Source: Octopus vulgaris
Lineage: Eukaryota
Length of the DNA: 64,000 nucleotides
Reading direction: 5' to 3'
NCBI GenBank assembly: GCA_951406725.2
Contig: OX597837.1
Location: 13,268,001-13,332,000 of the forward strand
The notes under the pieces were generated by a model. That model ran no database searches. It was given only the letters and a program-made list of their open reading frames with translations, and was not told the DNA's origin. The position numbers were made by a program, and so were the translations under genes. Below, in pieces: positions 45,735 to 63,232 of the stretch (positions within the stretch are counted from its first letter, which is position 1; every line of letters begins with the position of its first letter).

Positions 45735-47617
45735 TCAGTTGAGCTGTACAAGTTCTTGCTTAACACTGAAGCTTGGATCAAATGCCGAGCTTGACCCTCC
45801 AGTAGAATTCTCATCAACAACATCTGAGTTATCAACAACATCAACAGGAGGGGGCCCTGGAGATGATGTTTCGTAGACATTTGAGCCAATTTTGTTGTAA
45901 AGGTTCATATCAACTCGCAGATACTGCAACATCTGCTTGTTCTTCTCATCAAGCTCTAAAGGATGCTTACGTTTAAAGCGCCAGTACACTTTTTTGTTTG
46001 ATGGATGCTTAATTCTTTCAGCAGCACCGACGCCAAACTCTGAGACCTTTTTAAAGAACAACACCGACACCCAGACAGGGTGTCGGTTATTGGTGGCTTG
46101 TTGTTTCACGGGTGGCGCGATGGACTTTTGAGCAGCTGTCGTAGCCGACACACCCGTTCCATCATCATAACACTCAAGCAAGCGCTTCATTCGTTTGCCG
46201 TGATTAGTGATAAAGGATGCCTTGTCCATAGTGTAAAATTCTGGAATAAAAGGGATCTCATAATCATCATCAGCAAGGACTACTTGAGGCTGGTCCCATT
46301 CTTTGGGTAAACTATTAATGGGTGGCAAAGGTAAGTTCTGAGTGCTGGGAGACGTTTGTATGCCGGACGGGAGAACACCAAGGGCTGTAGATTGAGCAGG
46401 AGTAGGGGGGATAGAAAGGACGGCAGATGAGTTGTGGGTATTTTGTTGTTGCTGTTGTTGTTGAGATGCTGCTGCAACTTGCTGGTTAGACTGTTGCTGA
46501 GCTTGCTGTTGGACTTGCTGTTGCTGCTGCTGTGAAACAACAGCGGCTGCTGCAGCTGCCTGCGATGCGGAGTGTGCAGCTTGTGCACAGTACTGTTGTT
46601 GTTGTTGCAAGGCAGCTGCAGCAGCGGAAACATTGACAGAAGGCTGAAGACCAAGAGACATTCCAGACACCAACATCAATGCAAGTTTTTGCTCCATGAA
46701 ATATTTGCTTAGTTCAATGGCTTTGTGTAGAGTTTCACTGTCGATAACCAAATCCCATTCATAAATAGCTGGATTTGTAGCCTGCATCGTAAACTCGCAA
46801 GCGTTCATTAAGGCCTTCAGCACACCTGCCATACGTACAATCTGACCAAGAGACTTCTCAATGGCGCTTCGACGACGTTCATCGTGATCCAGTTGACTAA
46901 CCATGCTTGCCCACTCTTCGTCGTGCACACGGCACAAATCTTTCCAGGCTTCTGTCGAGAAAACATATTCTCGGTTTTGTTGATGATATGTATGAAGTGT
47001 TTGAAAAATAGTTTTCATAGGAGGTGTGTCGGTAGTGAGAGGAATCGAATTCCAGATGGTTGAAAAGTTGGGATTGTGAGGGCAAGCTACTAAATAGCGA
47101 CTACTAAGCCAGGTTTGACCGTTGAGAAATAAATCCACGACATATTTTGGATGACCCATACCTGTGTGATTAAAGCAGGTAGAATCTAAAGTTGTCATTT
47201 CACCATTCTCTACGTGAAACATTGGACCGCCATCATAGAGAACCAAGAGTTGATCGGGTCCTTTAGAATTTTCTTGGTCTAGTTCTAGCATTTTGTGTAA
47301 CTGATGGAGGTCTTCAGCAAAACACAGAATTTGTCCACTGTTCTTTCGAAGTACATGAGATAAATCTTCGTGAGTCATTGGCCCAGCAATTAATTTTTGA
47401 GGTCCGGGGCCACTGTGAGGTGGAGCGCCAGGGGAAGTAGGACGTGATAAATGCCATTGCTTTTCGAGTTCTCTCTGGATTTCTAAAAGTGGTGTCATAA
47501 GTTGGCGGAGGGCAGCAGATTTCCGTGTGCCTGGGTAGGCACCAATCATTGTCCAAACTACAGGTGGTTCCTGCCATAGTTGATTCACTTTTATTTTTGT
47601 CTTTCTGCCCATCAGAG
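45735..47617 (-). CDS. DUF3987-like gene, coding exon 2
   Basis: Uninterrupted frame of about 627 codons. Walker-A-like GAYPGTRKS (47517-47543), [15 protein letters not shown], polyQ/A tract (~46440-46625), C-terminal VKQE. Confidence 0.92.
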
Positions 47618-61010: not shown

Positions 61011-63232
61011 GCGGGCGCGCACACACATATTAGATATGACGCAAATGAACATTGTAAATGTTTACCCATAAATAATTATTTCCTTTTTAATTAAAAAATT
61101 AAATAACTACTTATTTCAAATTAATTATGAAGAAATCGTCAAAAAGGTCGATCGTTCAAATCGCGAGATTGAACGAATTCCAAATATTACGCAAATAAAA
61201 ATGTGGAGCCTTTTCTGATAGACTTAAATATGTATCGATATTTTCCAAGTAGAAGGGGGAAAAAAATCAAATATAATTCTATTCACATTTAAGATGTGTG
61301 ATCGGATTCGATCCAAGCAGTTGGTCCTAACGAGAAGGGGTTTATTTTGTCGGTTACAGAATTATCTAGATTTGAATCTGGTAGTAAAACTTATTCGCGC
61401 TGTCCATTGAGGTTTCACCGAGCAGACTCTGTGGTCAAAGGCGTCCCAGCTGTGACCATTCCGTCAATGTTTTCAAGCCAGTGCACCCAGGACCGACCAT
61501 GTGATCTGTCTTGTGTTCTTCAACGTTTCAAGACACTGGAGCGTGAAATTTAAGGAAATTCAGCTAAATTTTGAATTAGATCGAACGACCGTCTTCGATA
61601 AATTTATTCAGAAGAATTTAATTGGCAAATGGTGAAGGAGTATTTCAAACCAAACGTTTCCATTTTCTTTTTATTAGTATTTATTGAAGACGGCGGGCAA
61701 TGAAATGGATGAAAGGTACTACTCGAGAACAGTGGTCCCGGTGCGCGCACTCGCGCAAGCTAGTCATGACTGGTCGATCCTTACTTTGTGTTTTTGTGTT
61801 ATTTACTTTGTTTAAATTTTTTTAATCTCTGTTTTTGTGTTTTATTTACTTTGTTTTAACAAAAATTATTTACTTTTTTGTGTAAAAAATTTATTTATTT
61901 TGTGTTTTATTTACTTTGCTGGGCAGTCGTTGTAAGGATCGACTAGTCACGACTAGCTAGCGCGGATGCGCAACTACGCGAGTGCGCGCACCGGGACCAC
62001 TGTTCTCTAGTAGAACCTGGATGGAAATTTCGCTACTACGAACGAACCATGAATTTATTTAGTGAGACAAGGCCGAATAACGAAGGTGATGGACGAAAAA
62101 AAAATGTCTGAAAACAAGAGAATGGCGGCGGTGACGTCACAGGAAATAGGTGTAACCGGAAATGGAAAGAAACTAATTGAGTTTTGGGTTGGCAAGTTGA
62201 CGGTCTTTCATAAATAATTGGTTAAAATCGAGAAATAGAGAAGAACGGTCGATGGCAAAACATGTTGCTGTCGTCACACAGCAACAAATTGGGGGACAAG
62301 TAGCGATAGTCGACATAAAACCAGCTCTGGTACCACATTGATTATTATTTTAATATATCGGCACCGGAAGAAAAGAAGAGGTAAAGCTGGAGACGTAGAA
62401 GAAGAGGAGCGTGGCTTTTAGGGAGATTTGATGAGGTACCACAAGGTACCCCGCTCAAGCCCGCCACTTCAGATTGTCACCCATGAAACATGTATAGCTA
62501 TATCTGTGTATATATACATTTATATGTATAGCTATATATGTGTGTGTATATATATACATTTGGCGCATTTATATGTATAGCTATATCTGTGTGTATATAT
62601 ACATTTATATGTATAGCTCTATGTGTGTGTATATATACATTTATATGTGTACGTGGGAAGAGATCGTTTTGAATAATATATTTCGGTTCATAATAAAACT
62701 TAGTTAAGATGCTGCTAAAGCCGAAAGAATGCCGATTATATTTGATGTTTTTTGATATTGTGTTTGGCTTAGTAATTTGTGAATTAAAAGAGTTATTTAT
62801 TTTGGTTCGAAATACATTTTAGAGAGGTGCATGGTGACAAAATTTGGCAAAATTTTACGATGTTAAAAGGGTTGTGGTGTGAATAGAACAAAAATTGGCA
62901 CGAGTGAAAAGAGCAGTCACAAAGTGGGTGATCGAAATATGTGAATAAAATAATTATCAACAGATCCCCCATTTTACAACCGCGCGGTGTACATTTATTT
63001 ACTTACCGGCTGTGCAAGAGAGCAAGGGAAGGAATATATATTCGGAAGGGCAGCCTATGGCATTAGCATGATTGGTGACTAGCCTCCGTATGTTGTAGCT
63101 ACCGACCAAGGCCAGATCCAATAAAGGCACCATCTGGGCAGTCTTGTAACAATCTTGCCAGTTGAACTGGCGTGTGCCCGAGTCTTGCGACGGTGCCATG
63201 GTGCTCGTACCGCCTGGCCTGCCTTCGTCCAT
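45735..63232 (-). CDS. DUF3987-like P-loop domain protein with polyQ/A region, whole gene model (2 exons, 702 aa)
   Basis: Exon 63232-63007 (phase 1, G|GTAAGT) splices in frame across a 15.4-kb intron to exon 47617-45735 (ttttttcCAG). The junction reads [33 protein letters not shown]...[12 protein letters not shown], which resembles the DUF3987 N-terminus. Confidence 0.8.
49296..49848 (+). mobile_element. RTE LINE 3'UTR repeat (family C) with hairpin array and (GAT)n tail
   Basis: 5' part matches 54355-54440, directly after the RTE ORF stop. It continues into GTGCCNNTGGCA(C/T) hairpins, AGGAAGGGCATCC, a terminal CCATGCNAGCATGG hairpin and a GAT tail. Confidence 0.75.
51135..51524 (-). mobile_element. 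SINE family A, full length
   Basis: Near-identical to other family A copies. Further diverged copies at ~2860-3267, 24570-24945, 41700-42025, 48810-49125, 50633-51030 and 52370-52748. Confidence 0.85.
51948..52350 (+). mobile_element. CR1-clade LINE 3' end
   Basis: [39 protein letters not shown]; then [13 protein letters not shown] and an (AACTT)n tail. Confidence 0.88.
53073..53378 (+). mobile_element. tRNA-derived SINE with family D head and a different 3' tail
   Basis: First ~185 nt match the 6897-6710 element, then the sequence diverges; ends CACGTGATCACGTGA. Confidence 0.8.
53575..54450 (+). mobile_element. RTE-clade LINE 3' fragment (ORF C-terminus plus start of 3'UTR)
   Basis: [11 protein letters not shown]...[14 protein letters not shown]...[12 protein letters not shown]...RGRPRKTW. 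Confidence 0.9.
55814..56045 (+). mobile_element. SINE family B with 16-bp TSD
   Basis: TSD aagaaatgtgtaatgt at 55798-55813 and 56046-56061. Confidence 0.85.
56078..56475 (+). mobile_element. SINE family A nested in an RTE LINE
   Basis: Full head-to-tail match to family A. Confidence 0.85.
59080..61010. repeat. Large compound (TA)n/TACA/TCTACA microsatellite-minisatellite blocks
   Basis: Arrays at 59340-59960 and 60360-61010; source of the I/Y-rich spurious ORFs. Confidence 0.95.
61715..62017. mobile_element. MITE with GC-rich TIRs and 9-bp TSD (Merlin- or Mutator-like)
   Basis: TIRs GGTACTACTCGAGAACAGTGGTCCCGGTGCGCGCACTCGCG and its near-perfect reverse complement. TSD tggatgaaa (61706-61714) / tggatggaa (62018-62026). 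T-rich internal repeats. Confidence 0.8.
62118..62165. promoter_or_regulatory. Dense TF-motif cluster (YY1-like ATGGCGGC, full CRE TGACGTCA, two ETS cores) in intron 1 of the DUF3987-like gene
   Basis: aatggcggcgg-TGACGTCA(62132-62139)-caggaa...accggaaat, all within 45 bp of CpG-rich sequence. Confidence 0.5.
62490..62650. repeat. ~35-bp minisatellite
   Basis: catttatatgtatagct...gtgtatatata repeated about four times. Confidence 0.8.
63007..63232 (-). CDS. DUF3987-like gene, coding exon 1
   Basis: MDEGRPGG...[23 protein letters not shown]-rich codons, strong GTAAGT donor. Confidence 0.82.

Follow-up and report, generated by a model that had tools for sequence, protein, structure and literature searches.

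The stretch of Octopus vulgaris DNA considered here, 64,000 nt of contig OX597837.1 (assembly GCA_951406725.2, positions 13,268,001 to 13,332,000 of the forward strand) and referred to below as the window, carries on its minus strand a two-exon gene for a 702-residue protein of the DUF3987 family, which very probably arose by domestication of the helicase of an animal DNA transposon. By alignment, this protein has lost the catalytic Walker B glutamate, a change absent from the preliminary description of the gene. The mechanism as a whole, namely that the domesticated and hydrolysis-dead helicase works not as a motor but as an oligomeric, SUMO-regulated, DNA-binding nuclear factor, can be considered moderately probable; the binding to DNA, the assembly into oligomers, the SUMOylation and the localization in the nucleus that it involves are all predicted properties.

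The assignment to DUF3987, originally made by eye, is borne out by a Pfam PF13148 match (E 3e-29) scoring 102.7 bits, the cut-off being 27, and a DNA helicase family of PHROGs is matched at E 9e-17. DUF3987 proteins are described as superfamily 6 (SF6) helicases, distantly related to MCM and ending in a winged helix (PMC4889955), and the domain is listed among primase-linked helicase domains (PMC5862659). An AlphaFold2 model based on a 118-sequence alignment, used in place of a poor earlier one from six sequences (predicted local distance difference test, pLDDT, 43), has a mean pLDDT of 80.8 and two confident domains, at about residues 25–395 and 531–652. The first is an MCM-like AAA+ (DUF3987, SF6) domain with pLDDT mostly above 90, whose exon 2 share lies at 46659..47617 (minus). 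In a VIA comparison it matches an MCM subunit with Z 17.4, a root-mean-square deviation of 3.7 and 273 aligned residues, all Foldseek rows listed are MCM chains, and DUF3987 clusters in the Atlas are matched with a template modeling (TM) score of 0.84. Among solved structures MCM2-7 and MCM8/9 are closest to the AAA+ part; sequence searches of solved structures gave nothing useful. In the model the structural match sets in near residue 45, and in the MCM chains it begins between residues 200 and 490, only their AAA+ part being aligned and the MCM N-terminal OB/zinc-finger domain being absent from the model. There is no fused primase, only 24 residues preceding the ATPase domain, and no adjacent one, the recognizable neighbors being paracaspase, RPL15, WD40 and TBC genes.

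The linker (46254..46658, minus; residues 396–530) consists of a polyQ/polyA stretch, modeled as a single long helix at 405–454, and a P/S/T-rich low-confidence part. The glutamine codons of residues 400–470 are mixed, as noticed from the start (17 CAA, 12 CAG). A Pfam match to TFIIA was rejected, as it falls on this low-complexity segment and below its cut-off. The C-terminal domain (45888..46253, minus; residues 531–652) is a basic winged helix, with 22 K/R against 11 D/E, modeled with pLDDT above 90 in a helix-helix-hairpin layout. Its Atlas neighbors are mostly winged-helix families at TM 0.40–0.55, below the naming bar, including a Cdc6 winged helix and, as the best neighbor (TM 0.55, likewise below the bar), a mostly rotifer DUF3987 cluster. 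The SUMO consensus VKQE (45753..45764, minus; residues 694–697) closes an acidic tail modeled with low confidence. All motifs named in the preliminary description were found in place: GAYPGTRKS at residue 101, two 11-residue C-terminal motifs at 548 and 617, and VKQE at 694.

The residues of the ATPase site fall into two sets. The Walker A motif GAYPGTRKS (47517..47543, minus) keeps Lys108 and Ser109; Arg249 (47097..47099, minus), aligned at the likely arginine finger, is also kept, as is Arg337 (46833..46835, minus), the likely sensor-2 arginine of the lid and the most invariant residue of the family, both roles being assigned from AAA+ knowledge. The Walker B motif ILCFAEDL (47307..47330, minus) has Glu177-Asp178, aligned via a bivalve orthologue onto the Walker B DE of a cyanobacterial plasmid DUF3987 protein; because this pair stands where intact relatives have Asp-Glu, the catalytic glutamate is, on the alignment, lost. 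Orthologues have ED, EN or ER at the pair, so the catalytic position is unconstrained, and the W-x-R motif of the hairpin, invariant in intact animal-type relatives, is gone from the Octopus protein. In the alignment of relatives described below, the Walker B glutamate is kept in 35/35 prokaryote-like rows (as DE in 28) and DE in 9/9 animal-type rows with a short linker (16–38 aa), and the catalytic glutamate is found in 0/41 animal-type rows with a long one (65–289 aa). PMC11724360 describes one DUF3987 member as an oligomeric 5'-3' helicase requiring Walker A K213 and Walker B E297, unwinding being abolished by E297Q. Continued but slow ATPase or helicase activity at a variant Walker B would agree with the retention, in the mollusc clade, of the Walker A lysine (as Lys-Ser/Thr, 7/8 rows), Arg249 (7/8) and Arg337 (8/8), and with the two acidic residues left in Octopus; the variation among orthologues, the missing W-x-R and the inactivation of the tested family member by an E-to-Q change make this improbable.

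The origin of the gene is indicated by its catalytically intact relatives. A search for the intact-type family gave 125 matches; among 112 new intact-type proteins the motif is DE in 87, NE in two and unreadable in 23, and 72 are shorter than 350 aa. Fourteen of the 27 DUF3987 loci detected in a metagenome scan have at least 1.5 kb of upstream DNA, and at eight of these (L015, L016, L019–L021, L024, L025 and L031) a divergent, head-to-head CxC5/KDZ transposase is present. Its domains were matched as CxC5 in L015 (E 3e-9) and as KDZ, below the cut-off, in L019 and L025 (E 1e-4). These loci represent two families, whose transposases are 35% identical. The two-gene element L015 (L015:2-3509) joins such a transposase head-to-head with an intact DUF3987 helicase, and in both L015 and L016 the helicase is encoded by one open reading frame (ORF) with DE. 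On these sequence comparisons the closest relatives with an intact catalytic site are genes of animal DNA transposons of the KDZ-linked type, which makes direct capture from a prophage, the source proposed in the preliminary description together with integrative elements, not the simplest route. No paper on the pairing of a KDZ transposase with a DUF3987 helicase was found. L024 is bordered on both sides by inverted arrays of a 10–11 nt repeat; a 28-bp inverted match there was rejected as a terminal inverted repeat, since it belongs to the array. At a further locus a Mutator-like transposase fragment (L033:3588-3962, Pfam E 7e-12) precedes a broken DUF3987 gene by about 1 kb, and L034 and L035 show the same frame.

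The wider relationships were drawn from a profile search of 1.84 billion representatives, which gave 3196 matches at E 0.001; the best 150 were analyzed, and names were looked up for 24 proteins. Ninety of 157 proteins are at least 380 aa long and entered the alignment, comprising 35 prokaryote-like and 50 animal-type rows and five that were dropped (one duplicate, one lacking Walker B, three lacking the winged helix); the 50 animal-type rows have both features. The tree contains 50 rows, three long-branch rows of 53 being left out, and its prokaryote-like rows are labeled by motif and tree position, with Geminocystis alone named. Animal-type proteins form one clade against the prokaryote-like rows (support 100/100). 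A mollusc clade, also at 100/100, unites Octopus with Sinanodonta, Argopecten, Elysia, Nucella and the chiton Liolophura, so that cephalopods, bivalves, gastropods and a chiton are represented; to judge by the tree, the bivalve, gastropod and chiton members are likely orthologues of the Octopus gene. The other long-linker groups are Tegillarca with Haliotis and Solemya, Lineus, Lingula, and the single rows Ptychodera and Diadema. The grouping of the mollusc clade with Ptychodera, the Lingula clade and one unnamed clade has a support of only 85/97. No vertebrate member is apparent among the named matches; searches with tblastn gave no match in phages and two weak ones in plasmids, and viral contigs gave none. 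Two side observations concern individual clades: one (P0059, P0065, P0103, P0109) retains the winged helix although its Walker A, Walker B and arginine finger are all lost, and a second mollusc clade, of Tegillarca, Haliotis and Solemya (P0171, P0040, P0045, P0043, P0049), combines a long linker with a degenerate Walker B. A query with P0171, with a stricter first look, found no separate member of the latter in the Octopus genome.

One clade of all 29 long-linker rows is not rejected (approximately unbiased, AU, test, p 0.263), and the free tree needs four state changes; given the AU result, single and repeated domestication are both compatible with the tree. A reversed direction or an independent origin, in which an old host family, perhaps acquired directly from bacteria or phages, later supplied transposons with an intact copy, draws on the same test, on the unsupported base of the animal-type clade and on the many intact relatives without a known genomic context. 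It is nevertheless very improbable: the intact state is shared with the prokaryote-like outgroup, which makes the degenerate state the derived one, animal-type proteins of the intact kind are found in large numbers, most of them as fragments (the 72 of 112 below 350 aa), as transposon copies would be, and a KDZ transposase stands beside eight of the 14 loci with readable context.

The winged helix links the host protein to the transposon-borne helicases. A profile made exclusively from the winged helices of intact-type proteins matches the Octopus C-terminus at E 2e-12 and also 8/8 of the mollusc-clade proteins tested; on this evidence the winged helix came with the helicase and is inherited from the ancestral one, and a newly gained C-terminal domain was ruled out. 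The transcription-factor-like features, described at first as gained by the host gene, thus have to be divided, the basic C-terminal region being ancestral and the SUMO motif holding up as a conserved feature. The SUMO consensus occurs within the last 30 residues in 10/10 mollusc-clade proteins (0.39 expected from shuffles) and in 22/37 long-linker rows with a tail (0.96 expected), and in 0/36 full-length intact, transposon-type proteins; the terminal motif is conserved far above chance. Identity to Octopus across molluscs is 35–58% in the ATPase, 45–62% in the winged helix and 12–30% in the linker and tail. Compared with Argonauta there are seven changes in the ATPase, two in the winged helix and 17 in the linker, and compared with O. 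bimaculoides none in either domain. The Octopus protein and the transposon-type proteins are 24–29% identical in the ATPase and 18–25% in the winged helix.

The fold also invites another interpretation, a pseudo-helicase of replication, repair or meiosis comparable to MCMDC2 or to degenerate ORC subunits, serving as a DNA-bound scaffold or loader and not in the regulation of transcription. MCM2-7 and MCM8/9 are, as said above, the closest solved folds, and a Cdc6 winged helix is among the matches of the C-terminal domain. MCM, ORC and Cdc6 are built in this way, with an AAA+ part followed by a winged helix, and SUMO sites are also common in repair proteins. There is a precedent in MCMDC2, a protein of meiotic recombination without conserved Walker motifs (PMC5070785). 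Yet the MCM N-terminal domain is missing, and the protein belongs to DUF3987 and is not an MCM paralogue, so that no active partner is evident, one DUF3987 locus having been found in the genome; in addition, the long Q/P/S linker and the terminal SUMO motif would suit a regulator better. This interpretation is therefore regarded as unlikely, though less so than the other alternatives considered here.

That the gene belongs to the host and is not multicopy, as the preliminary description supposed, agrees with genome searches using five queries (the ATPase part, the Pfam model, the winged helix, an intact relative and the second-clade protein P0171), each of which, with the best candidates scored, found one locus only. 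In the window plus 80 kb (144 kb), the best tblastn match to transposase queries had E 0.36. No element-end inverted repeats were found around the gene, its flanks sharing only scattered dispersed repeats of 45–215 nt in both orientations. A still-mobile element is ruled out by the lack of flanking ends, the lack of a transposase in the 144 kb and the single locus; the gene is a single-copy host gene among ordinary host genes. A KDZ search of the Octopus genome itself gave no match, nor did its control, so this result is not evidence of absence.

The same observations bear on a possible defence gene, whose dead subunit would poison the rings of transposon DUF3987 helicases or silence element ends through SUMO. 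Kept interface arginines with a lost catalytic glutamate are the pattern of a dominant-negative AAA+ protein, and several separate long-linker clades are what repeated captures would give, but the strong conservation in O. bimaculoides and Argonauta fits an arms race poorly, a second DUF3987 gene was not found in this genome, and the identity to transposon-type proteins is low in both domains. Such a role has a small probability.

The gene model itself, a spliced ORF of 702 codons, was read correctly from the beginning. The coding part of exon 1 (63007..63232, minus; 226 nt) encodes residues 1–75 and the first base of the Ala76 codon, that is, a short N-terminus and the first DUF3987 helices, and that of exon 2 (45735..47617, minus; 1883 nt) residues 76–702 and the stop. 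They are separated by a phase-1 GT-AG intron of 15,389 nt (47618..63006, minus), which begins with GTAAGT and ends with a pyrimidine tract and CAG. The joined exons (63232–63007 plus 47617–45735, minus) give 702 codons and a stop, and the product is identical to P0007 (O. vulgaris CAI9739949.1 / O. sinensis XP_029650360.1), annotated on record as an uncharacterised protein. The junction 63007/47617 is crossed exactly in contigs of five public runs from five studies; 4/4 run contigs on the exon 2 side run on into exon 1, and 4/4 on the exon 1 side into exon 2. An artefact or chimeric exons are ruled out by these two-sided junctions and the identical database product. The evidence consists of assembled contigs from runs whose RNA label is guessed or blank; it supports splicing all the same, because the exons are joined without the intron and the genome searches showed no second, intronless copy. 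One run, X17, has only two coding differences from the gene, both synonymous. The 5' untranslated part of exon 1 (63233..63639, minus) is delimited by the longest contig, the other three exon 1 contigs ending at 63386, 63401 and 63514; as contigs do not define the true transcript start, 63639 is a minimum extent.

P0011, P0021 and P0024, which look like exon 2 frames with intronic read-through, diverge from full-length relatives at the same codon, the one at the intron, and P0024 clusters with the chiton Liolophura; this suggests that the intron position is common to molluscs. The intron was probably gained by the host gene, as proposed in the preliminary description, because its transposon-borne relatives, in L015 and L016, each consist of one ORF. 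It is also worth mentioning that P0008, isoform X2 of O. bimaculoides, is predicted without exon 1 and would lack the first helices of the ATPase domain; its alternative first exon had no match in the present intron in a search with one simple pattern.

The proposed course of events can be outlined as follows. An intact AAA+/winged-helix helicase would have traveled head-to-head with a transposase, its winged helix binding short repeats at the element ends, much as SaPI Rep acts on iterons. One copy would then have lost the transposase and become fixed before chitons split from the other molluscs. In the present protein ATP would still be bound between subunits by the Walker A lysine, Arg249 and Arg337, which would keep a ring or oligomer assembled, and E177-D178 and the loss of the W-x-R hairpin motif would stop translocation driven by hydrolysis. 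The AAA+ part may thus have become an oligomer scaffold, residues of the ATP interface being kept and those of hydrolysis and translocation lost. Owing to the longer linker, genomic sites some distance apart would come within reach of several winged helices, and the Q-rich part of the linker and the terminal SUMO site could recruit transcriptional or chromatin cofactors.

Several observations weigh against this account. Six of the eight KDZ-linked loci are 92–98% identical copies of one family; of the 14 loci whose upstream DNA is long enough, six show no KDZ transposase match, and three of those six are near-copies beside the Mutator-like fragment. The base of the animal-type clade is unsupported, and the tree gives no support for placing the mollusc clade within a transposon clade. 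The 41 long-linker rows are related by descent and amount to about seven clades, not 41 independent events, and the query profile favors long-linker proteins. ATP binding is not uniformly kept, since the Walker A Lys is replaced by Arg in Elysia and P0021 has no Arg249, and the two acidic residues at E177-D178 may still allow slow hydrolysis. Finally, the match of the winged helix to solved winged helices is weak (Z about 5, the domain not being folded on its own).

Domestication of a transposon helicase may also have a wider history. Long-linker members are found not only in molluscs, with two clades, but also in a brachiopod, a nemertean, a hemichordate and sea urchins, and it is conceivable, if only tentatively so, that they form an old animal family of DNA-binding regulators, perhaps of Bilateria age, built repeatedly from transposon ring helicases. 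An equally speculative part of that proposal is a repeated path, along which the glutamate was lost, a long low-complexity linker and a C-terminal SUMO motif were gained, and the winged helix was kept.

The Octopus protein resembles the DUF3987/YfjI SF6 helicases encoded by phages and prokaryotic mobile elements (AgaPH in PMC11724360; surveyed in PMC4889955) in its Pfam match, MCM-like AAA+ domain, Walker A lysine and winged helix, and differs from them in having no primase fusion or neighbor, no Walker B glutamate, a linker of 158 aa against about 10, an intron, a SUMO motif and a place in an animal chromosome. With the helicases of KDZ-type (CxC5) transposons it shares the animal-type clade (100/100), the AAA+/winged-helix layout and a homologous winged helix (E 2e-12), whereas the latter keep DE and a short linker, are encoded by one ORF where they are intact, and stand head-to-head with a transposase. 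MCM2-7, MCM8/9 and MCMDC2 have the same AAA+ fold (Z 15–17) and a C-terminal winged helix, and MCMDC2 (PMC5070785) is similar in that a degenerate ATPase site is kept by selection; the Octopus protein differs in lacking the MCM N-terminal domain, in an identity of 11–16% in structural alignments and in its probable separate origin from mobile elements. In SaPI Rep, according to PMC9371898, a flexible C-terminal winged helix on an ATPase ring reads short repeats (iterons) without ATP, which provides a model for the possible role of the winged helix in Octopus; the fold match is weaker (Z about 7), and the Rep proteins are active helicases of bacterial satellites.

Domesticated animal DNA-transposon genes include CENP-B, THAP, ZBED and HARBI1/NAIF1, which are likewise single-copy, conserved host genes derived from elements, often without catalysis and with the DNA-binding domain kept. 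They come from transposases or Myb-like partners, and the Octopus gene appears to come from a ring helicase; to our knowledge, all domesticated transposon genes derive from transposases or their DNA-binding partners. Domestication is thus a known kind of event, and a ring-helicase donor and the linked changes across animal phyla appear to be undescribed. No description of this gene or of any animal DUF3987 was found in the literature, a search whose scope excluded Repbase, subscription journals and supplements, so that prior mention is possible. If the proposed origin is true, an MCM-like ring helicase carried as a passenger of DNA transposons would be a new source of host regulators, and the series from an active transposon helicase to a dead, linker-extended, SUMO-tagged host protein would allow the conversion of a motor into a regulator to be followed residue by residue. 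The gene is conserved across molluscs, uncharacterised and predicted to be nuclear in its product, and is amenable to study in cephalopods, bivalves and snails; its general reach is limited by the lack of a vertebrate member among the named matches.

The remaining features lie in the intron and around the gene. The intron contains simple repeats, dispersed short repeats and decayed frames at 51811–52185 and 53738–54358 (plus), which gave no significant Pfam match and which we take, by eye, to be remnants of long interspersed nuclear elements (LINEs). Exons of a gene with a caspase domain (Pfam Peptidase_C14, E 1e-21) and Ig domains, presumably the paracaspase MALT1, are located at 16300–23245 (minus). 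The L006-L007/L012 region (G000:C24), 12–76 kb beyond the window, contains exons of RPL15, about 12 kb upstream, an open frame of 486 codons for a WD40 protein, which we assume to be UTP18-like, and one of 815 codons for a TBC-domain protein.

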